This document shows positions 4,991 to 40,877 of a stretch of 40,877 bases of DNA, in pieces. Below the pieces are notes generated by a model, which was given only the letters and a program-made list of their open reading frames with translations, made no database searches and was not told where the DNA came from. A program made the translations under genes and the position numbers. Positions within the stretch are counted from its first letter, which is position 1. Every line of letters begins with the position of its first letter. The DNA comes from a virus. The DNA is taken from the UHGV virus genome UHGV-1515682. One strand, given 5' to 3'.

Positions 4991-6025
4991 TCAATATTTG
5001 ATATACGCGTCCTGCACTTTGCCGCCAGCGATAGCAAACATTGCTTTCTGCGCGAATTCTTCGGGAATGCCTTGGGCTATCAGATCTGCGATTACTCTGC
5101 GGTTAACGGTACGGCGATGCTCTTTATCTGCAGCTCGGCGCGCTTCTTCGTCGGCGATACGCTTCTGTTCGTCAAGGCGGGCTTTTTCTGCCGCCTCTTG
5201 GCGTCGGCGTTCCTCGGCAACGGCTTCTTCTTTTTCGCGTCGTGCACGCTGCTCTGCTTCAATTCGCTGACGTTCTGCTACTTCAGCACGTGCTTTTTCT
5301 TCCGCCGCCAGGCGTGCCGCAGCCTCAATTTCAGCTTTCGCTTTTTGTTCAGCTTCGAGCCTGGCCTGTTCAGCAGCTTCCCGGCGGATATTCTCTTCTC
5401 GCTCAATGCGCGCTTTTTCCTCCGCTTCTTTGCGAAGTCGCTCCAGCTCAGCGGCTTCATGCTCGTGTTTTTGAGCTACTGCGAGTGATTCTTCCAGTTT
5501 CTGGATGGTTGAATCCTTGGCTACTCCAGCTTCTGCTGCGTACTCCTGCCAACTTTCATCAAGTGCTACTGATTTAGCCTCTTGAATTCGTTCCTGAATA
5601 TCAGATGATGGCAAGTAGTTTCCGGAGAGATCGATCACGTCAGCTAGTGCTCGCAAATTTGTCAGGCGTTGTTGCAGTGCTTCAGTGCGTAATTTCTCAG
5701 CATTTTCCCACTCGGTGAGTGGGCGGCGTACTTCATCACGAAGCCGATCGCATTCGGTTACGAAGCGTCGTAACTCTGCTTCAACTACTTTCGGCTGTTC
5801 TTTCAGGCGTTTCAGATAATCACGTCCTGGTTTTTCTACCGCTGTTTTACTTCTTGAAACCTTCGCAGCCAGAGATGCAATGCGCTTTCTGCCTTTGTCT
5901 GTGCTAATGTCAGGCACTTCATTAACACCTTCACGGATCTGCTCGAGAAACTTTTCCAGCCCTTTTTCAACGTAAATTCTTGGTGCCATGTCTGGTGTGA
6001 TTTCGATGATTGATAATTCACTCAT
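4991..6025 (-). CDS. Hypothetical protein with long Glu/Ala/Arg/Lys-rich coiled-coil segment
   Basis: 344 aa; ~120 aa of EAxRxxAEEKAR-type repeats between N- and C-terminal globular regions; DNA 5040-5500 correspondingly repetitive. Confidence 0.6.
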   Translation of the reverse strand: MSELSIIEITPDMAPRIYVEKGLEKFLEQIREGVNEVPDISTDKGRKRIASLAAKVSRSKTAVEKPGRDYLKRLKEQPKVVEAELRRFVTECDRLRDEVRRPLTEWENAEKLRTEALQQRLTNLRALADVIDLSGNYLPSSDIQERIQEAKSVALDESWQEYAAEAGVAKDSTIQKLEESLAVAQKHEHEAAELERLRKEAEEKARIEREENIRREAAEQARLEAEQKAKAEIEAAARLAAEEKARAEVAERQRIEAEQRARREKEEAVAEERRRQEAAEKARLDEQKRIADEEARRAADKEHRRTVNRRVIADLIAQGIPEEFAQKAMFAIAGGKVQDAYIKY

Positions 6026-6202: not shown

Positions 6203-6217
6203 TTACCGTTGAGGTAA
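6203..6217. promoter_or_regulatory. Dyad operator-like site ttaccgttgaggtaa (OL-proximal)
   Basis: Perfect TTACC-N5-GGTAA; overlaps -10/+1 of predicted leftward promoter. Confidence 0.55.
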
Positions 6218-10213: not shown

Positions 10214-10695
10214 GCGAAATTAATTACCAGGCACTGCGTGAGGTGGCGGAACGTGCAATTCCAGCAATGGAACGCCTGTTAATGTTGCCAGCTGATGATG
10301 ACTTGTTAAGTGAACAGGAACTTAAAGACTACGGTGTGGATATTGATGCGCTCAACGCCTTCAAATTTCTGACCGGACCAGAAACCGTGCTGGCACTGCT
10401 GGATGAACGGGAAAGAAACCTGCAATACATCAAAAGCCGCGATCAGGAGAACGAGGATATTGCGCTAACGGTAGGGAAGCTGCGCGTTGAGCTTGAAGCA
10501 GAAAAACAGCGGGCAAAAGTTCTATTTATGGAAAATGCTCGGCTTAAGTCAGGCATAGCCGGTCTGATACACCTCGGTATTCGATATGCAGATGTTGAGG
10601 TCATGAAAATTGCTGGAGATGCCCAGCTTTCTACCCCATGCACTGACAGCATCATAAACAGCATTGCAACAGGCATTCGCATCAAAGGAGAGTGA
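10210..10695 (+). CDS. Hypothetical protein, possibly Ead/Ea22-like
   Basis: 161 aa; GTG start with AGGAGG RBS; coiled-coil-rich; weak recalled resemblance to ead/Ea22 proteins. Confidence 0.4.
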   Translation: MSEINYQALREVAERAIPAMERLLMLPADDDLLSEQELKDYGVDIDALNAFKFLTGPETVLALLDERERNLQYIKSRDQENEDIALTVGKLRVELEAEKQRAKVLFMENARLKSGIAGLIHLGIRYADVEVMKIAGDAQLSTPCTDSIINSIATGIRIKGE

Positions 10696-12089: not shown

Positions 12090-12363
12090 CCTTCAACTTG
12101 CCGTCAAAGGTGAATACTTCGATGCCATGATTCGTGGAGAGAAAACGGAAGAGTATCGTCTGTGTAATGACTACTGGAATAAACGCCTCGTTAATCGTAA
12201 GTATGACCGCCTGATTATCACAAAGGGATATCCGAAGCGCGACGATTCCAGCCGCAGAATTGATGTTCCGTATGACGGATATGAAATCAAGACAATCACA
12301 CATCCTCACTTCGGCGATAAACCGGTAAATGTGTTCGCGATAAAGGTAAATATTGATGGCTAA
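12082..12363 (+). CDS. Hypothetical protein, ASCH/PUA-like fold suspected
   Basis: 93 aa; N-terminal LAVKGEYFDAMIRGEKTEEYR pattern; GTG start with GGAGG RBS. Confidence 0.4.
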   Translation: MANLQLAVKGEYFDAMIRGEKTEEYRLCNDYWNKRLVNRKYDRLIITKGYPKRDDSSRRIDVPYDGYEIKTITHPHFGDKPVNVFAIKVNIDG

Positions 12364-12694
12364 ATCAGCAGCAGAGCGCAAAGCCGCTCAGAGAGCCAGA
12401 CAAGCTGCATCTGGTGTGCGTAAGCTGGAAATTGTGCTTGATGCTCAGGAAATTGAAATGCTGGAGCGTAACTGTGCCACGCGTCGCCCCGGGCGTGCGC
12501 CTTACGAATTTGGTGAGTATATAGCGTTACTGATCCGCCAGGATGATGCACGCGTGCGCGGGCGTATAAAATCGATCAGCAGAAAACGTTGCGGTAAGTG
12601 CGGCGAGAGAGTTCCAGTTAATTCATGCCCGTGTAATGGTGACTCGCAATGCTGGGTGACTAAAGGCTGGCATGAAACGAAATTAATAGTGTGA
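12356..12694 (+). CDS. Hypothetical zinc-ribbon protein at the Q-antiterminator position
   Basis: 112 aa; CGKCGERVPVNSCPCNGDSQC cysteine cluster; last early gene before a terminator and the terminase genes. Confidence 0.45.
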   Translation: MAKSAAERKAAQRARQAASGVRKLEIVLDAQEIEMLERNCATRRPGRAPYEFGEYIALLIRQDDARVRGRIKSISRKRCGKCGERVPVNSCPCNGDSQCWVTKGWHETKLIV

Positions 12695-12702
12695 CATGTC
12701 AC
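12691..12702. repeat. Perfect 12-bp palindrome GTGACATGTCAC (copy 1)
   Basis: Overlaps stop codon of 12356-12694; identical copy at 32686-32697; both followed by a terminator hairpin. Confidence 0.5.
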
Positions 12703-12742
12703 GAGTAGATTATGCATGATGAATTTGATGGTTTTGAATACT

Positions 12743-12768
12743 GCCGCCAACTATGGCGGCTTTATTTT
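12743..12768 (+). terminator. Rho-independent terminator upstream of terminase genes (tR'-like)
   Basis: gccgcc-aactat-ggcggc hairpin followed by tttatttt. Confidence 0.6.
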
Positions 12769-12811
12769 GCATGGTACTATTACCACAACGGTAACTATTA
12801 CCACGGTGGTT

Positions 12812-13408
12812 ATGATGCCTGCTGAACCTAAAACCTATAAACGCAAATCAACGCAATTTAAGCCGCTCACAGCAATGCAGGAGGCTTATTGCCAGTCATA
12901 CATCAAAACGCCTGAAAACCAGACTCAGGCAGCGATTAACGCAGGATTCTCCCCAAATACAGCGGCAGTTAAAGCCAGTGTCATGATGCGCGATGAACGC
13001 ATTCAAAAACGGATTGCCGAGTTGATGGAGGAGCGCAACAAACGAATGCGCGTCAGTGCTGATTACGTTCTCATGCGCCTGGTGGAGATCGACCAGATGG
13101 ACGTGATCGACATCCTCAACGACGATGGGAGCCTTAAGCCAATCCGCGAGTGGCCGAAAATCTGGCGCACTACGCTTAGTGGCTTTGATCTGTCATCGAC
13201 CATCATGAACATGAACGAGGATTCGATAGAGACAATCCTCAAAAAAATTAAATGGCCTGACAAGGTGAAGAACCTCGAACTGATTGGTAAGCATGTTGAT
13301 GTCAACGCGTTCAAAGAACGTCTGGATGTTAATGTGAATGTGACAATTGCTGATCGCATAGCAGCAGCCAGGAAGCGACTCAAAGAACGTCAGGATGGTA
13401 ATCAGTGA
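12812..13408 (+). CDS. Terminase small subunit
   Basis: ~198 aa; motif QEAYCQSYIKTPENQTQAAINAGFSPNTAAVKASVMMR typical of phage small terminase; immediately upstream of and overlapping large terminase; start at ATG 12812. Confidence 0.65.
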   Translation: MMPAEPKTYKRKSTQFKPLTAMQEAYCQSYIKTPENQTQAAINAGFSPNTAAVKASVMMRDERIQKRIAELMEERNKRMRVSADYVLMRLVEIDQMDVIDILNDDGSLKPIREWPKIWRTTLSGFDLSSTIMNMNEDSIETILKKIKWPDKVKNLELIGKHVDVNAFKERLDVNVNVTIADRIAAARKRLKERQDGNQ

Positions 13409-14880
13409 AAGATACAGCGTTATCTCCTGAAGAGCAGTTGATCGAGGATATTGCAGGGTTCACTCACGATCCGCTTGGTTATGCCCTCTATGCGTTCCCG
13501 TGGGGGGAAGAGGGGACTGAACTGGCACATGCCACCGGTCCACGTCAGTGGCAGGCCGATGCGTTCCGAGAGATACGTGATCACCTGCAGAATCCAGAGA
13601 CGCGCTATCAGCCGCTTATGCTGGCACGCGCTTCTGGTCACGGTATTGGTAAATCCGCATTCATCTCAATGCTGATCAACTGGGGCATGTCCACTTACGA
13701 GGATTGTAAGGTCGTGGTGACCGCCAACACCGACAACCAGCTACGAACGAAGACCTGGCCGGAAATTATCAAGTGGTCGAACCTTGCTATCACGAAAGAC
13801 TGGTTTACCTGTACCGCTACCGCGATGTACAGCAATGACCTAGGGCACGACAAGCGGTGGCGGGCTGACGCAATACCCTGGTCTGAGCACAACACCGAGG
13901 CATTCGCCGGACTACACAACGAGCGCAAACGCATCATCGTGGTGTTTGATGAAGCGTCGAACATTGCGGATCTGGTGTGGGAAGTTGCCGAGGGTGCGCT
14001 TACGGACGAAGACACTGAGATTATTTGGGTGGCGTTCGGAAACCCTACACGTAACACCGGGCGTTTTCGCGAATGTTTCCGCAAATATAAACACCGCTGG
14101 AAAACTGCGCAGATTGACAGCCGGACGGTGGAAGGCACTAACAAACAGCAGTTGCAGAAATGGGTTGATGACTACGGGGAAGACAGCGACTTCGTTAAAA
14201 TCCGTGTGCGCGGCATATTCCCTGATGCATCTGAATTGCAGTTTATCCCTACCGGTCTTACTGATGAGGCAATGAAACGGGTGGTAACCGCTGCGCAGGT
14301 TGCACATGCTCCGGTGATAATCGGCGTTGACCCGGCATACTCCGGCGTTGATGACGCTGTGATATACCTGCGGCAGGGGCTGCACAGTAAGGTGCTGTGG
14401 ACCGGCAACAAGACCACTGACGATCTGATTATGGCAAAGCGTATCGCTGACTTTGAAGACCAGTATCAGGCTGACGCGGTGTTCATCGACTTCGGTTACG
14501 GTACCGGGCTGAAGTCAATCGGTGACGGTTGGGGGCGCACATGGCAACTTGTTCCGTTCGGTGGCGCGTCTACTGACCCGCAGATGCTCAACAAGCGTGG
14601 GGAGATGTTCAACTCATGCAAGACATGGCTGAGGCTGGGCGGCATGCTGGATGACCAGGAAACAGCGGACGACCTGTCGGCGGCAGAGTACAAAGTTCGC
14701 GTGGACGGTAAAATCGTTATCGAACCGAAGGAAGATATCAAAGAGCGGCTTGGGCGTTCTCCTGGTAAAGGCGATGCGCTACTGCTGACGTTTGCGTTCC
14801 CTGTGTCGAAGCGTCTGCGAATTCCCGGGCAGCAGAACCAGCAAGGCAAGGCGCTTACCGAGTACGATCCATATGCTTAG
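13405..14880 (+). CDS. Terminase large subunit
   Basis: 491 aa; Walker A-like ASGHGIGKS, ATPase plus nuclease regions; GTGA overlap with small subunit. Confidence 0.9.
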   Translation: MKDTALSPEEQLIEDIAGFTHDPLGYALYAFPWGEEGTELAHATGPRQWQADAFREIRDHLQNPETRYQPLMLARASGHGIGKSAFISMLINWGMSTYEDCKVVVTANTDNQLRTKTWPEIIKWSNLAITKDWFTCTATAMYSNDLGHDKRWRADAIPWSEHNTEAFAGLHNERKRIIVVFDEASNIADLVWEVAEGALTDEDTEIIWVAFGNPTRNTGRFRECFRKYKHRWKTAQIDSRTVEGTNKQQLQKWVDDYGEDSDFVKIRVRGIFPDASELQFIPTGLTDEAMKRVVTAAQVAHAPVIIGVDPAYSGVDDAVIYLRQGLHSKVLWTGNKTTDDLIMAKRIADFEDQYQADAVFIDFGYGTGLKSIGDGWGRTWQLVPFGGASTDPQMLNKRGEMFNSCKTWLRLGGMLDDQETADDLSAAEYKVRVDGKIVIEPKEDIKERLGRSPGKGDALLLTFAFPVSKRLRIPGQQNQQGKALTEYDPYA

Positions 14881-15695
14881 TCTTTATTTTTATCATCGAA
14901 ACCTGATAATCCAGATAGAACACCAAAGTTATTAAAAACGTTTGGCTTACCAGATTTTAATCCGGATAAGTTGTGTTGCTCCAAAAAGTTGCTAATTGTT
15001 TGGCCGTTGCCAAGTGCAAGGCTTTTTATTTGAGATTTTTCAGGGTATTTGAGTTTGTATTCGTCGAAATCATTTTGGAGGGTCTTATATGCCTCATTCA
15101 TTCTTCCCAGAGTTTCCGATATCTCTTTTAATGAATGATTTAGAGCTGCTAACTGAGCACTGGCGGATCTCAATTCGTCATCTTTAGCTTTCAACTCGGC
15201 AGTCAATTCCCCCATACTATTCTTTGATCGAATAATCTCTTCTTTCATCTCTTGGATGTCTTTTTCCGCGCCAGTCTTAACTTTGTCGTATGTAACATCT
15301 TTTTTAGCCAATAACCTCTGCAGTCTGGTTTCACGCTGGATTTTTCTTGCCTTCAGGTGATTTTCGATTGAGTCATTATTATCAAGAGGCTTTGCTTGCC
15401 ATACGTTAATGATATTGTTTACCCATGGTAATAGGCAGCAGATAGCAATTACAGATAAGCATGGATAAAACATAACAGTTTTCCATGTGCTGTTATCTGA
15501 GATATATGAAATTTTATCTATTATGTTTGATTTGCTAAAAAATAGATAAAGAATTGATTTCCAGTTGAAGGCGCACCAGGACATAACAAAAGCACCAAGC
15601 ACAGGGTTTTTGGCTCGATTCACGGCAGTATTGGCAGTAGATAAAAACAGCTCTTTAAACGATTCAAACATGCTAATTACCTTGAAGTTTTTCAT
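14877..15695 (-). CDS. AT-rich cargo gene: membrane-anchored coiled-coil protein of unknown function
   Basis: 272 aa from ATG 15695 (MKNFKVISMF); two predicted TM helices then long coiled coil; opposite strand to flanking late genes; low GC. Confidence 0.6.
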   Translation of the reverse strand: MKNFKVISMFESFKELFLSTANTAVNRAKNPVLGAFVMSWCAFNWKSILYLFFSKSNIIDKISYISDNSTWKTVMFYPCLSVIAICCLLPWVNNIINVWQAKPLDNNDSIENHLKARKIQRETRLQRLLAKKDVTYDKVKTGAEKDIQEMKEEIIRSKNSMGELTAELKAKDDELRSASAQLAALNHSLKEISETLGRMNEAYKTLQNDFDEYKLKYPEKSQIKSLALGNGQTISNFLEQHNLSGLKSGKPNVFNNFGVLSGLSGFDDKNKD

Positions 15696-15699
15696 GATT

Positions 15700-15714
15700 A
15701 TACCTTTAAGGTAA
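15700..15714. promoter_or_regulatory. Dyad operator-like site atacctttaaggtaa adjacent to cargo gene start
   Basis: ATACC-N5-GGTAA (one mismatch) 5 bp upstream of ATG 15695. Confidence 0.45.
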
Positions 15715-15767
15715 TTTGCGGTCATCAAGCAAAAAAATGCCCGGCGAACCGGGCGAACTGGAAGCAA

Positions 15768-15917: not shown

Positions 15918-15994
15918 TGGCGTGGCATGCAGGATTCGAACCTGCGACCAACCGCTTAGAAGGCGGTTGCTCTGTCCAACTGAGCTAATGCCAC
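15918..15994 (-). tRNA. tRNA-Arg (anticodon UCU)
   Basis: Hand-folded cloverleaf: acceptor GTGGCAT/ATGCCAC, D-arm GCTC…GAGC, anticodon stem ACCGC/GCGGT with loop CTTCTAA, T-arm GCAGG-TTCGAAT-CCTGC, discriminator G, encoded CCA. Confidence 0.85.
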
Positions 15995-18321: not shown

Positions 18322-18614
18322 CAGATTACGAAGATGATCAACTGAAAGAAGAAAACGCCCGTAAGCAACGTGACATGGCACAGCGTGAAATTGATGACAT
18401 TCGCTTTGTCATGAGCAGTGAACAGGGGCGTCGCGTTGTCTGGTCGGTGCTGGAGAAAGGCCGTGTGTTTTCCGCTATCTCACCGATGGACGCTATGGCA
18501 ATGGCATTTAATGAGGGGCAACGCAATCTGGCGCTGGAACTGTTTCAGCGCGTTATGGCGCATTGCCCTGAACAGTATTTGAAGATGGCCAAAGAGGCCA
18601 GTGAACAGGAGTGA
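18318..18614 (+). CDS. Hypothetical head-module protein
   Basis: 98 aa; ATGA coupling to portal. Confidence 0.5.
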   Translation: MTDYEDDQLKEENARKQRDMAQREIDDIRFVMSSEQGRRVVWSVLEKGRVFSAISPMDAMAMAFNEGQRNLALELFQRVMAHCPEQYLKMAKEASEQE

Positions 18615-19320: not shown

Positions 19321-20313
19321 ATGACAATGGCTGTTAAAGGCTTAACTGCGCTAACGCTGGCTGACTGGGGTAAGCGCGTCGATCCAAACGGGAAAGTCGA
19401 TAAGATTATCGAGCTTCTCGGTCAAACTAACCCGATCCTTCAGGATATGCCTTTTGTCGAAGGGAACCTTCCTACCGGACACCGAACCACCATTCGTTCT
19501 GGTTTACCTTCAGCTACCTGGCGTTTGCTGAACTATGGCGTACAGCCAAGCAAATCAACCACAGTGCAGGTAACCGATTACGTTGGCATGCTGGAAACCT
19601 ATGCTGAAGTCGATAAGTCACTGGCTGATCTGAACGGCAATACCGCCGAATTCCGCCTGTCTGAAGACCGCGCATTTATTGAAGCGATGAATCAGCAGAT
19701 GGCGCAGACGCTGTTTTATGGTGATTCCAGCGTTAACCCTCAGCAGTTTATGGGACTGTCCTCCCGCTATTCCAGCCTGTCTGCAGGTAATGCTCAGAAC
19801 ATCATTGATGCTGGTGGCACGGGTACAGATAACACCTCAATCTGGTTAGTGGTGTGGGGCGAAAACACAGTGCATGGCATCTTCCCGAAAGGGCAGAAGG
19901 CTGGCATTCAGATGGAAGATAAAGGCCAGGTGACACTGGAAGATGCTAATGGCGGCAAGTACGAAGGCTACCGTACCCATTACAAATGGGACAACGGACT
20001 TGCTCTGCGTGACTGGCGTTATGTTGTTCGCATTGCAAACATCGATGTCAGCAATCTTTCAGAACCTTCCTCTGCCGCAAATATTGCGAAGTTGATGGTT
20101 AAAGCACTGCATCGCATTCCAAATCGTGGCATGGGTCGCCCGGTGTTCTACATGAACCGCACTGTAGGCCAGGCTCTTGATCTGCAATCTCTGGAGAAAA
20201 CATCTCTGGCGATCAGCGTAAAAGAGACAGAAGGCGAGTGGTGGACTTCATTCCGTGGTGTACCAATCCGTGAAACTGATGCGCTTCTGGAAACAGAAGC
20301 CCGCGTGGTGTAA
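19321..20313 (+). CDS. Major capsid protein
   Basis: 330 aa; position after scaffold, strong RBS, followed by terminator region. Confidence 0.65.
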   Translation: MTMAVKGLTALTLADWGKRVDPNGKVDKIIELLGQTNPILQDMPFVEGNLPTGHRTTIRSGLPSATWRLLNYGVQPSKSTTVQVTDYVGMLETYAEVDKSLADLNGNTAEFRLSEDRAFIEAMNQQMAQTLFYGDSSVNPQQFMGLSSRYSSLSAGNAQNIIDAGGTGTDNTSIWLVVWGENTVHGIFPKGQKAGIQMEDKGQVTLEDANGGKYEGYRTHYKWDNGLALRDWRYVVRIANIDVSNLSEPSSAANIAKLMVKALHRIPNRGMGRPVFYMNRTVGQALDLQSLEKTSLAISVKETEGEWWTSFRGVPIRETDALLETEARVV

Positions 20314-27810: not shown

Positions 27811-29609
27811 GTTACTTTGGCCTTAATCCAGTAAACCAGAATCAGCAGCTTGACGAAGCAGCATCAAATCCAGCTGGCTTTAACAGCGATGTTGGTTTTT
27901 TCGACAATGCTGTAGGAGCGGCATTGTCTGGTTTGTACTCCGGGCTGGTGGCAAAGCCAGATCAGTTGCTATGGGCAGGGATGGATAAAATCGTATCCCC
28001 GATTGCTCAGTTTGTTAACGAAAACACCTCGATCAATGACACTTCAGTTTCATACATTGCTGAGCAGAGAAAACTAGCAGAGCAGCAGGTTAAGCGGCTG
28101 ACGCCTGATGCCGCGACAACCGGAACCGCCGGGCAGGTCCTTTATGGGTTGTTCGATATGGGCGGGCAGGCTGTTGTCGGTACAACGCTCGGTGGTCCGG
28201 TCGGAGGTGCTGCGGCGGTAACTTCTCTACAGGGTTTTTCTGAGTTTGAACGGCTTACAGCACAGGGTGTTGATTTCAGGACGGCGCAGGAAGCGGGATT
28301 AGTGCAGGGTATTACTGCTGGTGCCGGAACACTGATCCCTATGAGCCTCGGGTTACGTGCTGGTGGTGCGCTGGCGGAAGGTGTGGCGGCTCAGCTTGCG
28401 CGGACGGGTGAAAGTTCAGTGCGACGCGCCGCAGCAACAGCAGTACGTGCAACGCCAGATATTGCCTATGCCGCAGGTACAAATATTGCGTTCGGTATGG
28501 CACAGCGTGGGCTTACTGCAAAAACGCTTCGTGATGGTGGCTATAGCGAAATGGCTAACCAGTATGATGTGTTGGATCGACAGGCAATTGCTATTGATGC
28601 TGTTCTTGGGGTGGCGTTTGGTGGTGTCGGCAGATTTATTAACTCTCGCGGCGAGTCTACAAGCGCACCAAATTTTTCACCAGTTGATATCGATGCTGCA
28701 CTGGCGGCGAATGCCGCTCATCATGCTGAAATTGATATTGCTCCCGGCGTGCCGATCAACGTGCTTTCGCGTAATTCGCACATTCAGGCTCTGCGAAAAG
28801 CCATGTCTGATGTTAGCCAGGGGAGACCTGTAGACGTTGCCAGCATTGTTGAGTCTGCATCTTTCAGTGAAATTCCTGGACGCAAGAGTCTGCTGTCTCA
28901 GGCAGTTAATGAGGCTCTGTCATCTGTAGATGATGGAGTAACGGCGCGCGCTATAGAAAATCGGTTGCTTGAAGAACAGGCCGCGCAGCTTTTGCCGCGT
29001 GGCGATAGACAGGTTTACCAGTCTGAAATCGCTAATAGCCAACGAATTATTGAAAATCTCACTGAACAGCGCGCACAAATTCTTGCAGAAGATCCAGCCG
29101 GTAGCGGTAAGGCTTTATCTCGTGCTCGATCAGATAAACAGGCCAGACTTCGCGATATTGACCAACGAATCCGGCAGGCACAAGAACGCCTGGAATTTTC
29201 TCGTAACGCGTTGGCACCGCATGAGCCTGGCGGTCAGTTTTTTGAAGCTCGAGCAGAACTGGCTCGGAGACAGCAGGCAGAAAGTGAACTTAATGCTCAG
29301 GCTGTTTCATTCTATAAAACAGCAGAGGTCAGGACGCCAGACGAAGTAGCTCCTTTTGAGCCTGATAAAATATTGCAACAGGCAGAACAAAAAATGATGT
29401 CAGATCAGGCAGGAGATATTGATTTGCGCATAGCTGAAGACTCGCTGCTTGAATCACCTGACATGATAATCACCGTGCTGGATGATGATGGTAATCCACA
29501 ATCGCGCAGTGCGCGTGAAGCACTGGATGAAGCGAACAGGGAAAGTGAGCAGGCAATACAGGATTCCAGCCTGTTTGATGTCGCTGTGGCGTGTTTCTTG
29601 AGAGGTTAA
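27807..29609 (+). CDS. Large internal virion/ejection protein
   Basis: 600 aa; Gly/Ala-rich N-terminal half; ATGA coupling. Confidence 0.55.
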   Translation: MSYFGLNPVNQNQQLDEAASNPAGFNSDVGFFDNAVGAALSGLYSGLVAKPDQLLWAGMDKIVSPIAQFVNENTSINDTSVSYIAEQRKLAEQQVKRLTPDAATTGTAGQVLYGLFDMGGQAVVGTTLGGPVGGAAAVTSLQGFSEFERLTAQGVDFRTAQEAGLVQGITAGAGTLIPMSLGLRAGGALAEGVAAQLARTGESSVRRAAATAVRATPDIAYAAGTNIAFGMAQRGLTAKTLRDGGYSEMANQYDVLDRQAIAIDAVLGVAFGGVGRFINSRGESTSAPNFSPVDIDAALAANAAHHAEIDIAPGVPINVLSRNSHIQALRKAMSDVSQGRPVDVASIVESASFSEIPGRKSLLSQAVNEALSSVDDGVTARAIENRLLEEQAAQLLPRGDRQVYQSEIANSQRIIENLTEQRAQILAEDPAGSGKALSRARSDKQARLRDIDQRIRQAQERLEFSRNALAPHEPGGQFFEARAELARRQQAESELNAQAVSFYKTAEVRTPDEVAPFEPDKILQQAEQKMMSDQAGDIDLRIAEDSLLESPDMIITVLDDDGNPQSRSAREALDEANRESEQAIQDSSLFDVAVACFLRG

Positions 29610-32232: not shown

Positions 32233-32308
32233 TTGTATTGTTCGGAAGAATAATAAAATAACTAGTTAATTTGTGGATTGGTGCTGTTTTTCCATGATAG
32301 GGGTAATT

Positions 32309-32689
32309 ATGAGAAAAGTATTTTTGATTTTTGGATTTATGCTTCTCGTTGGATGCCAGTCAGCTGCACAGTTTGAAAGAAATATGCTTACGTGGCGCGG
32401 GCAGAGTATAGACGCAATGGTTCAGCAGTGGGGGTATCCTCAGGGAGAGCTTACATCTCCAGATGGAAACAGAGTGTATGTTTACTCAAGCTCTGGTAGT
32501 TATAACGTACCACAAACCACAACGTATAATACTACGTCTAATCTAATTGGTAATACTATATATTCAAACACATACGCAACAACTGATGGCGGTTATACAC
32601 TCCATTTCAGTTGCTCTGTTTACGTTGAGTTTGGTGCTGATAAGATTATTAAAAATGTTACATGGCGCGGTAATAATTGCGTTGCGTGA
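32309..32689 (+). CDS. Cargo lipoprotein
   Basis: 126 aa; signal peptide with lipobox (MRKVFLIFGFMLLVGC); AT-rich; Ser/Thr/Asn/Tyr-rich mature region. Confidence 0.6.
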   Translation: MRKVFLIFGFMLLVGCQSAAQFERNMLTWRGQSIDAMVQQWGYPQGELTSPDGNRVYVYSSSGSYNVPQTTTYNTTSNLIGNTIYSNTYATTDGGYTLHFSCSVYVEFGADKIIKNVTWRGNNCVA

Positions 32690-32697
32690 CATGTCAC
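32686..32697. repeat. Perfect 12-bp palindrome GTGACATGTCAC (copy 2)
   Basis: Overlaps stop codon of lipoprotein gene; immediately followed by terminator. Confidence 0.5.
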
Positions 32698-32722
32698 AGG
32701 CCGCTTTCGCGGCCTTGTTTTT
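32698..32722 (+). terminator. Rho-independent terminator after lipoprotein gene
   Basis: aggccgc-tttc-gcggcct hairpin followed by tgttttt. Confidence 0.65.
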
Positions 32723-32882
32723 AACGAATGCCACCGCCACCCGGGCGGGAATCCGCAGAACGCCCACCGCAGCGGGAGCCGTCAGCGGCAGTATCGCTGT
32801 CGTGCTGACAACGACCGGCAAAGGCCTGAGTTGAAGCTACCAGAGACAACAAAACGAACAGTGCAGCAAATGCTTTTTTCAT
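32721..32882 (-). CDS. Possible small secreted peptide (53 aa)
   Basis: Internal ATG gives MKKAFAALFVLLSLVASTQAFA signal-peptide-like N-terminus; mature part low-complexity and GC-rich, so may be spurious. Confidence 0.25.
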   Translation of the reverse strand: MKKAFAALFVLLSLVASTQAFAGRCQHDSDTAADGSRCGGRSADSRPGGGGIR

Positions 32883-32943
32883 TGTGACATTTCCATCTAT
32901 AAGCCACCTCAATGTGGCGTCAATGAGTGTAGCACTGACTTTT

Positions 32944-32966
32944 GTTTCGTCCACAAAAAAGCCCGC
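32944..32966 (-). terminator. Rho-independent terminator after 32981-33613 gene
   Basis: Minus-strand AGAAGCCCGC-AGCG-CGGGCTT followed by T6. Confidence 0.6.
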
Positions 32967-33758: not shown

Positions 33759-34445
33759 TCAGAAGAACCCTGCCTTGTCGTTGATGTACTCCGCGTGCGT
33801 CTGGATATCACGCAGGCATTTGCTCACACCAACGATGTAACAGAACATGGTGGTCAGCTCCGCCGCCGCGCCCGATACGTCGTGCCCGTCTTCCTGTAAC
33901 TGGTTCAGCAGATTCATCAGCAGTGAGTTCTCCGTCAGGCCGAGAACACCAGACGGCGAATGAATCAGGCTACGGTAGCCTGGCTTCAGTGGGGCACTGT
34001 AGGTTTTGTTCTCTATCTTCATCGCCTGCATTACTGCTGACGCCGTGGCGTTGGCTACCTGGTCGGCAACCATCTTTATGCGTTCTTCCTGCGGGAGCGA
34101 GTTTTTAATGTAACTTCCGGTGCGGCGGATCTGAGGAAGAACCTCACCTGTAACCCATTTACGAAAGCGGTATGGGATAGTGCCTGGTGTCACCGCATCG
34201 CGGCAGCGGAGGATCAGTGTGTAGAGGCCTGACTCGTTGATAATATTGGTTTCGCCTTGACGGCCTAAGTTAAATTTAGCCCTTTCATCATCATCAAGAG
34301 ATTTTATTGACATAGTGGGGTTTGTCAGTTGAAGAGCTTTAATAACGTCTTTGGCAACAAACCAAGGATTTCCATCAATAACAATGGCTCGAATGGTTGC
34401 TTCTGATTCAAAATGAAAAACAGATGGGGTTACGTTAGCAGTCAT
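33759..34445 (-). CDS. Bro-N domain antirepressor-like protein
   Basis: 228 aa from ATG 34445; N-terminal Bro-N signature (FHFESEATIRAIVIDGNPWFVAKDV…GLYTLILR…RFRKWVTGEVLPQIRRTGSY); C-terminal ~70 aa homologous to the product of 35591-35848. Confidence 0.75.
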   Translation of the reverse strand: MTANVTPSVFHFESEATIRAIVIDGNPWFVAKDVIKALQLTNPTMSIKSLDDDERAKFNLGRQGETNIINESGLYTLILRCRDAVTPGTIPYRFRKWVTGEVLPQIRRTGSYIKNSLPQEERIKMVADQVANATASAVMQAMKIENKTYSAPLKPGYRSLIHSPSGVLGLTENSLLMNLLNQLQEDGHDVSGAAAELTTMFCYIVGVSKCLRDIQTHAEYINDKAGFF

Positions 34446-34721
34446 AGTGATCACCTTTGTAGTTAGGTTAATCACCACTACCGACGCCAATCGGTTGGTG
34501 GTGAACTGTGCAGGGTTGGCGTAACCGGCTACAAAGGACCCGGCGCACCTTTCGGTGCCCCCACACAGCCCACCATAGAATAGGTGCGCTTTACACATAA
34601 AAAAACCGCTTATGCGGCATATGTGCCTCTGTAGTAATCCGGGACGCCAATCCCGGCACTGGATTTTGCCAGTGCCCGATTACTATGGCACAAGAGGAGT
34701 GCGATGTAAATTTACCGTAAA

Positions 34722-40111: not shown

Positions 40112-40590
40112 TCTGGGCATTCGCAAAAGCATACTGGAAACAGTTGGTTGTCATGGCGATGCTTGCTGTTCTGGTCATATCAGGAGTTGTTGCCTGGAAT
40201 GTGCACGGCAGTCGTCAGTACGACGCTGGGTATGCACAGGCGAAAGAAGACCGCAAAACCGAAGATGAGAGAGTTCGTCAGCACTACGAACAGGAGAAAT
40301 CGATCAATGAACGTGAAGCGCAGCAGAGGATCGACCAGGCGCGCAATGATGCTCTTGATGCTGCCGCTCGCGCTGGCCGGTTGCAGCAACAGCTCGTTGC
40401 CATCCGTGAGCAGCTCAGGCACTATAACGCCATTGTCGGCGCTGGGTCGTCAGCCGCAGACACCGGAGTTTTGCTTGCCGACGTGTTCAGCAAATCTCTC
40501 GAGAGAAATAGACAACTGGCAGAGTATGCTGACCGGGCAGCCGAAGCCGGAAGAGTCTGCGAAAAACAGTACGACACCCTGACCAGATAG
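40108..40590 (+). CDS. Rz-like i-spanin
   Basis: 160 aa; N-terminal TM helix then coiled-coil periplasmic domain; ATGA coupling to endolysin. Confidence 0.65.
40346..40582 (+). CDS. Rz1-like o-spanin embedded in +1 frame of Rz
   Basis: Lipobox [13 protein letters not shown] followed by Pro/Ser-rich short mature peptide; entirely within Rz-like gene. Confidence 0.55.
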   Translation: MMLLMLPLALAGCSNSSLPSVSSSGTITPLSALGRQPQTPEFCLPTCSANLSREIDNWQSMLTGQPKPEESAKNSTTP

Positions 40591-40741
40591 CATGGCATTT
40601 TTCATGGTACTGATTTCCGGTGACGGTATATAAAACGGTACGAGAAAAATTCATCTTTGGAAAAATGTTATCACTCAATTGGTTATGTGTGTCGTAAATA
40701 ATTGAGTGGGAATGATTTGACCCTGCACTATGAATGAACAA

Positions 40742-40768: not shown

Positions 40769-40877
40769 TGTGCACAGAAAACCCCCAGCTAGGCTGGGGG
40801 TTCCGGAAAGCTTTCAGCTTTGAGCCAGTTATTAAAACCCCTTTTGATTTGTTAAAACACCTTGCGGTCTGGCAACT

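Follow-up and report, generated by a model that had tools for sequence, protein, structure and literature searches.

A Conserved 12-bp Palindrome at Operon 3' Ends of Epsilon15-Like Phages Is a Candidate DNA Site for a Predicted Ribbon-Helix-Helix Protein Encoded Just Upstream

Results

The Palindrome Recurs at Operon Ends in the Window and in Related Phages

We found that a perfect 12-bp palindrome, GTGACATGTCAC, which overlaps the stop codon of a small gene in an epsilon15-like prophage, recurs exactly at equivalent sites of clearly diverged phages and, as judged from this conservation, is a genuine, strongly selected cis element, functional rather than a product of chance. Since the motif travels with the gene across many unrelated temperate phages, it is probably the candidate site of the gene product, and we lean slightly towards the view that its general form, GTGAC-NN-GTCAC, is a DNA site for a dimer of the predicted ribbon-helix-helix (RHH), four-cysteine protein encoded just upstream.

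The window, i.e., the whole 40,877-nucleotide stretch of DNA analysed (UHGV virus genome UHGV-1515682), is an integrated epsilon15/phiV10-like podophage prophage of the genus Uetakevirus, with int at its left end and the lysis genes at its right. An exact search of the window gave two copies of GTGACATGTCAC, at 12691-12702 and 32686-32697, and at both of them motif positions 2-4 form the TGA stop of an ORF. The first of these ORFs (12356-12694, + strand) closes the early-right operon and encodes a 112-aa protein of the epsilon15 gp49/phiV10 gp55/N15 gp46 family (PHROG 536), so that copy 1 is the gene-proximal site of the module. The second (32273-32689, + strand) is an accessory ORF of 138 aa (PHROG 3716) in the variable slot that closes the structural operon, and copy 2 marks the 3' end of this late operon. 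A further, decayed copy, counted as the fourth by comparison with relatives, was recognised at the Rz stop (ATAGCATGGCAT, 40587-40598), and the window thus retains two motif copies, the gene-proximal one and that at the late-operon end.

Both copies lie next to an intrinsic terminator on the + strand. The terminator of the early-right operon (12743-12768; hairpin GCCGCCAACTATGGCGGC at 12743-12760, with a T-run to ~12768) begins 40 bp past copy 1, upstream of the terminase small subunit gene terS, and that of the late operon (32698-32722; hairpin AGGCCGCTTTCGCGGCCT at 32698-32715, with a T-run to ~32722) directly abuts copy 2. A preliminary description of this DNA had reported the palindrome over the stop codon, its identical, likewise stop- and terminator-associated second copy, and a strong terminator less than 50 bp past the first copy and before the terminase genes, all of which the analysis bore out. 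The gene terS was assigned to 12815-13408 (+ strand), with a start at ~12815 set by homology, because Pfam Terminase_2 begins at residue 51 of the ORF 12716-13408 and the ATG of epsilon15 terS is equivalent. The first terminator is conserved in epsilon15, SPN1S and other relatives; the second, detected as a terminator on the + strand only, sits between the late operon and a convergent leftward ORF, and its equivalent is annotated in the phiV10 and epsilon15 records. In alignments, the stems of these GC-rich hairpins carry compensatory changes among relatives. The convergent ORF beyond copy 2 is small (77 aa, 32721-32954, minus strand) and ends 26 bp from the palindrome, the terminator lying between; its N-terminus, on our own inspection of the DNA, presumably resembles a signal peptide.

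A repeated perfect 12-bp palindrome was present in only 1.7% of 5000 shuffles of the window (p ~0.017), and GTGACNNGTCAC was observed twice against 0.02-0.03 expected; the number of perfect 12-bp palindromes in the window (nine) was about that expected. The early caution that a lone repeated 12-mer can arise by chance was well placed, as repeated 12-mers are common; a repeated palindrome is not. The window statistics alone therefore give the palindrome modest support, suggestive and not decisive. A one-mismatch copy, GTGACATGGCAC, lies at 18370-18381 inside the ORF after the portal gene; phiV10 has it (at 5306) and epsilon15 has no counterpart, so it is probably coding sequence without a site function.

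The comparison with relatives was decisive. In epsilon15 and SPN1S, Salmonella phages whose DNA has clearly diverged, the exact 12-mer occupies three equivalent sites, namely, the gp49 stop, a position just past the terL terminator and a position just before the structural-operon terminator, and a degenerate fourth copy is found at the Rz stop (GTGACATGGCAT in epsilon15 and GTGACATGTCAT in SPN1S). In phiV10, the second and third sites are exact and the gene-proximal site has one mismatch. The search for the palindrome in related phages, which the preliminary description had proposed as a check, was accordingly positive. Across the three-site alignments the motif is 100% identical, as compared with 37-78% in the flanks. 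Copy 1, identical in position and sequence in epsilon15 and SPN1S, is 100% conserved against 60-78% in its flanks, and the left flank of copy 2 (counterparts at 19493 in phiV10, 19517 in epsilon15 and 19662 in SPN1S) is only 37% identical. In epsilon15-like phages, the copies beyond the gene-proximal one thus stand at the 3' boundaries of the terminase, structural and (decaying) lysis operons, 0-40 bp from intrinsic terminators, and genomes carry 2-4 motif copies each.

The post-terL slot, which holds a terminator and the palindrome in phiV10, epsilon15 and SPN1S, is taken in the window by a convergent ORF of 296 aa together with a tRNA-Arg gene, and the window has no copy there. At this site, unlike the others, the terminator precedes the motif for rightward transcription. 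The 296-aa ORF (14877-15767, minus strand) has no Pfam match and its stop overlaps that of terL; the tRNA-Arg(tct) gene lies at 15918-15994 on the minus strand. In the searchable literature we found no paper with the 12-mer; the original epsilon15 genome paper lies outside that search, and an earlier mention is possible. The text of the paper on the phage vB_EcoP_ZX5 (PMC9782041) does not contain the palindrome element.

The Motif and the Gene Are Inherited Together

Homologs of the 12356-12694 product in distant phages are accompanied by the same motif. In the Pectobacterium myovirus ZF40, gp22 is 67% identical to this product, and the genome has three exact motif copies, one of them 3 bp past the gp22 stop. 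The stop codon of N15 gp46 is contained in GTGACTGGTCAC, and two further copies of this 12-mer or its complement are present in the genome. Vibrio phage K233 has a homolog and three GTGACNNGTCAC copies, and a Yersinia P2-like phage a homolog and one exact copy. Comparison of the sites in these four phages defined the motif as GTGAC-NN-GTCAC, with invariant half-sites and an unconstrained 2-bp centre. Of the two other N15 copies, at 28550 and 33237, one separates gene 33 from the terminator that precedes gene 32 of the antirepressor locus, and the other is in the 5' third of repA.

To go from the protein to the motif, we took 33 loci from ~30 species, in contigs representing one genome per species and chosen only by the presence of a homolog. 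GTGAC-NN-GTCAC occurred 50 times in these 612 kb, against 0.58 expected; 32 of the 33 loci had at least one copy, and in 24 a copy lay within 100 bp of the homolog's end, as copy 1 does in the window. When all homolog-bearing loci examined were counted, the motif lay no more than 320 bp downstream of the gene in 44/56 and had the stop codon inside it in 31/56, and 12/56 had no motif near the gene. Lambda and P22 are without the gene and without the motif. Gene and motif are paired in podo-, myo- and siphoviruses, from Vibrio to Escherichia, and the commonest order across groups is gene stop, motif and then terminator within 0-40 bp. The enrichment, the gene-end position in 24/33 loci and the cases of N15, ZF40 and Vibrio all describe a two-fold symmetric site co-inherited with the gene, and the two would form a module moving together between phages, in which the gene's stop usually falls within the first half-site. 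The preliminary description had seen in the palindrome a possible site for a late regulator or antiterminator; co-inheritance does link the site to the 12356-12694 product, and the part that finds no support is a Q-type antiterminator, this protein having no Q signature.

The motif was also found away from the gene. An IMG/VR search for TGTGACATGTCACA returned 120 fragments, and a homolog was inside the fragment in only 32. In one lambdoid group, represented among complete genomes by SaltyDalty, a cro gene of the YdaS type ends in the motif, which has seven different flank contexts there and so marks a mosaic junction once more, and a second copy lies inside Q; no homolog of the 12356-12694 product was found in this group, the complete SaltyDalty genome included. 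The cro-end copies of these homolog-free phages show that the gene need not be present in cis for the motif to persist, and the copy inside Q may be a coding coincidence (VTCH). In the lambdoid group, the next ORF sometimes begins at the motif's central ATG, and the same is seen in locus L195. In ZF40-type phages, two motif copies 1.9-3.7 kb apart flank the immunity switch (cI-cro), a geometry that recalls lambda OL-OR; the homolog lies 3.5-7 kb downstream in 20 of the 27 loci, and none was found in the other seven, six of which include the full 10 kb downstream. Two unrelated genes of these phages, a YdaT-type cII and an early-left 180-aa ORF, share the 15 nt TGTGACATGTCACAG, which encode CDMSQ in both (L084, i.e., ZF40, at 5125 and 7622; L166 at 1191 and 3380; L321-L347).

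Mosaic Junctions Coincide with the Motif

We further found that mosaic junctions coincide with the edge of the motif in all groups compared. Between the window and phiV10, homology restarts exactly at the second palindrome, phiV10 having a different gene in the 32273-32689 slot. Among 80 near-identical IMG/VR relatives, at least seven unrelated sequence forms follow the post-terL motif and two follow the gp49-stop motif. In three loci (L088, ~10350-10400; L089, ~10350-10672; L095, ~1120-1180), an accessory gene has been inserted between the palindrome and a retained terminator, and there 2-7 bp separate the motif from the -35 of the LexA-box promoter that follows it (consensus TACTGT-N8-ACAGTA). 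The accessory gene of L089, downstream of which the equivalent of the 12743-12768 terminator is kept, encodes an 85-aa protein to which no function was assigned.

These junctions bear on an alternative that we regard as unlikely, yet the strongest of those considered, namely, that the motif is bound by a host factor or by some other phage factor, or is a recombination linker kept by module exchange, the link with the gene being only one recurrent junction. It fits the junctions lying exactly at the motif in every group, and the SaltyDalty-type phages, which carry the motif without the gene, at the cro stop and between many left and right flanks. Having TGA on both strands and a central ATG, the motif could also serve as a stop/start junction, as the ORF start in L195 illustrates. 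Moreover, its half-sites are those of matS, the MatP site. On the other hand, a host factor leaves unexplained why the motif sits at the 3' end of one gene family in the 24 species-level loci and in N15, ZF40 and Vibrio; outside two fixed positions, lambdoid DNA is not generally enriched for the motif, and no copy is present in lambda or P22. A mere scar would not stay 12/12 identical while its flanks drift to ~40%, and the matS version is countered by the 3-bp spacer of matS and by the lack of sequence homology to MatP. The outer GTGA/TCAC of the motif are presumably common to CRP, SlmA and LacI-type sites as well, in which the spacing or key inner bases differ. The lambdoid copies without a homolog and the 32 of 120 IMG/VR fragments are what keep the host-factor or linker alternative in consideration.

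The Adjacent Gene Encodes a Predicted RHH Protein

Alignment and structure prediction gave the 12356-12694 product a conserved basic N-terminal arm, a predicted RHH core and four invariant Cys, and the predicted structure has the ribbon-helix-helix fold. The family comprises ~242 clusters at 50% identity. The product itself has no Pfam family match; NCBIfam gave a weak resemblance to YbfE, a LexA-regulated RHH protein, some Vibrio members of the family match Pfam RepB-RCR_reg, and searches of solved structures and BFVD returned no informative named relatives. The predicted RHH core, the basic arm, the invariant Cys and the RepB-RCR_reg match of Vibrio members suggest that the protein is suited to a two-fold symmetric DNA site. 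When the motif centre was compared with the β-strand, we saw a clade-level correlation only, the same strand sequence occurring with AT and CT centres. No sequence homology to MatP was detected (hhalign probability 0.2%), and superposition on MatP covered the generic RHH part only.

Features of the Motif Favour a Duplex-DNA Site

The motif occurs in varied reading frames and genes, encoding CDMSQ both in a cII gene of the YdaT type and in an early-left gene, VTCH in Q and RDMS at the start of another Q. As RNA, it would form a hairpin with a 4-bp stem and -1.2 kcal/mol, which is no different from shuffled sequences (z = 0), and neither palindrome site in the window matched an Rfam family. Neither did we find at these sites a boxB-like stable hairpin with boxA, as in the N/nut system. 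The invariant half-sites, the mixed frames, the stop codon inside the motif, the marginal hairpin and the lack of an Rfam match at the two sites favour a duplex-DNA site for a dimer.

It is, in our estimate, improbable that the element acts as RNA, i.e., that GUGACAUGUCAC in the 3' UTR is a hairpin or protein site, nut-like or concerned with mRNA processing or stability, which the arginine-rich N-terminus of the protein may recognise. The order of stop, motif and terminator does place the motif in transcripts just 5' of terminator hairpins; as a palindrome it reads alike in both transcript directions, and the ZF40-type copies in both early operons may be compared with nutL/nutR. The protein also has an arginine-rich stretch near its N-terminus (AERKAAQRARQ), in which we presume a likeness to the arginine-rich motifs of N proteins. 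Against this, the hairpin is no better than shuffles, positions 5 and 8 are invariant though they would lie in the loop, and the predicted fold is that of a dsDNA-binding RHH protein. With the stop codon frequently within the motif, an RNA site would be hidden under ribosomes that terminate there, and the lack of an Rfam match at either site points the same way.

Late Operons Are Preceded by Repressor-Operator-Like Sites

Two prophage-repressor operator-like sites, TTACCACAACGGTAA and TTACCACGGTGGTTA, were found just upstream of terS, at 12780-12812. The corresponding pattern TTACC-N5-GGTAA occurs 16 times in the window (136-35939) against 0.65 expected, including at 6203, 6265, 6977, 9284, 9346, 12780, 12798, 16316, 33673, 34712, 34805 and 35925. 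Copies directly precede terS (12780 and 12798), the head operon (16316) and the tail-fibre gene (35925), and the epsilon15 annotation describes the equivalent site as repressor binding. These positions and the annotation suggest that every late operon has its own repressor-controlled promoter.

The preliminary description had likened the region to lambda, with a late promoter and a downstream terminator to be read through, and this part of it found no support: no conserved promoter and no Q signature were found, ZF40 and N15 have a Q of their own, and operators stand before the late operons. We consider it quite improbable that a late promoter or Q site coincides with the palindrome or overlaps it and that the 12356-12694 product is a Q-type antiterminator acting into the terminase genes. 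The comparison is an understandable one, the gene being the last of the early-right operon and directly before terS with a terminator between, the late genes all being co-directional with that operon, GTGACA resembling a -35 hexamer, and the motif preceding the terminator, for rightward transcription, at three of the four epsilon15 sites. However, the sole sigma-70 promoter-like match at the first site is 9/12 with an 18-bp spacer, and neither this match nor the sequence downstream of the motif is conserved in epsilon15 and SPN1S. The protein has no Q-family domain and its fold is predicted to be RHH; ZF40 gp25 and N15 gp40 are Q-like and coexist with homolog-motif pairs. Genomes have 2-4 sites rather than one, and many copies lie away from early/late boundaries: they are found at the late-operon end, past terL, and within genes such as cII/YdaT-like ones and repA, none of them at a promoter. 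Repressor operators directly precede terS and other late operons.

As for a 12-mer shared by chance between two unrelated terminators, the window-only probability and the commonness of repeated 12-mers are what could be said for it, and conservation and enrichment across dozens of genomes refute it, leaving it a negligible prospect. In epsilon15-like phages, terS-terL has motif copies on either side, and Vibrio K233 has one 30 bp ahead of terS; a pac or terminase recognition site was nevertheless rejected, as the copies of ZF40 and N15 lie far from the terminase genes and each genome has 2-4 of them. The start of the phiV10 record was considered as a clue to the genome end or cos and set aside as uninformative, since the record merely opens after the gp55 stop.

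Discussion

A Possible Mode of Action

In the reading that we favour, that of a DNA site for the predicted RHH protein encoded beside it, the protein would bind the motif and, once bound, would control the behaviour of RNA polymerase at transcription-unit boundaries. We prefer the version in which the motif would be a boundary or roadblock element, reinforcing the insulation between units and giving feedback on the end of the protein's own operon; an effect of the opposite sign, in which the bound protein would help read-through, is conceivable. Both sites in the window lie at 3' ends by terminators and not over a promoter, in L088, L089 and L095 the motif stands close to the -35 of a LexA-box promoter, and the mode of action is an extrapolation, because RHH regulators normally act at promoters and not at 3' ends. 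The invariant 12-mers would, in addition, act as short-identity crossover points for the exchange of accessory genes. A wider proposal, that the gp49/gp46-family protein and the motif make up a widespread phage boundary-element system, in which protein bound at the ends of transcription units, or on both sides of the immunity switch in ZF40-type phages, would bridge or insulate genome domains and gate read-through between them, with the sites doubling as crossover points for modules and accessory genes, is speculative and in our view rather unlikely.

Comparison with Known Systems

The closest parallels are RHH regulators such as P22 Arc and Mnt, MetJ, CopG/RepB-type plasmid regulators and type II antitoxins, which are alike in the predicted RHH fold, the small dimeric-type protein, the 12-bp symmetric site and the adjacency of gene and site. 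The system described here differs in several respects: its sites lie at gene 3' ends and terminators or inside genes and not over a regulated promoter, the protein is extended by a C-terminal region that four invariant Cys hold, each genome has 2-4 dispersed sites, and phages from those of Vibrio to those of Escherichia retain one and the same half-site.

In E. coli, MatP recognises the 13-bp matS (GTGACRNYGTCAC; structures 3vea and 4d8j). The spacer of matS is 3 bp, as compared with 2 bp here; the four-helix bundle and coiled coil of MatP are absent from the phage protein, and MatP acts on a chromosomal macrodomain, whereas the scale here is that of a phage genome. Every motif-defining site is 12 bp with a 2-bp centre, and the only 13-bp form seen was one extra GTGACACCGTCAC in Vibrio K233.

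A protein roadblock is known from LacI at the O3 operator, which overlaps the 3' end of lacI. The likeness lies in a regulator's site over the 3' end of its own gene, where, by analogy, binding could truncate the protein's own mRNA and so lead to autoregulation; LacI is a helix-turn-helix protein with its main operator at the promoter, unlike the predicted RHH protein here. Lambda Q with qut, PR' and tR' is a further parallel, since both systems have a small regulator gene where early genes meet late ones, a DNA site, and a terminator ahead of the late genes. Here, the regulator has no Q domain, we found no conserved promoter, the sites are several and extend to the end of the late operon, and ZF40 and N15 have a true Q as well.

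The modular theory of lambdoid phage evolution proposed boundary or linker sequences, and the motif resembles these as a short conserved sequence exactly at the junctions of exchangeable modules. It differs in being a defined 12-bp palindrome with a DNA-binding-type gene, and its conservation is stronger than a passive linker needs.

Implications

The motif gives a function-level handle on a role-less protein family of ~240 clusters at 50% identity, with members in the model phages epsilon15, phiV10, N15 and ZF40, and it is an unannotated cis element marking operon ends in epsilon15-like phages. Annotators could use it as a simple sign of where transcription units meet and where accessory genes insert. 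If the proposed binding is true, this would be an unusual RHH protein, whose place of action is not the promoter but the 3' boundary and the terminator, and there would be a testable reason why accessory slots and mosaic junctions share exact nucleotides. The boundary-element reading, if true, would give a concrete molecular form to the long-postulated linker sequences of phage mosaicism.

Other Features of the Prophage

Matches to the Rfam families of C4 antisense RNA and isrK were found at 34494-34675 (minus strand), adjoining a gene with a Bro-N domain at 33759-34598, and together they look like a P1/P7-type c4-antirepressor immunity module in an epsilon15-like prophage. The sequence attgagtgggaatgatt at 40701-40717 is the attP/attB core published for vB_EcoP_ZX5, at the 3' end of guaA (PMC9782041). 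Just beyond the prophage end, at 40780-40877, lies the Hfq-binding sRNA STnc490.
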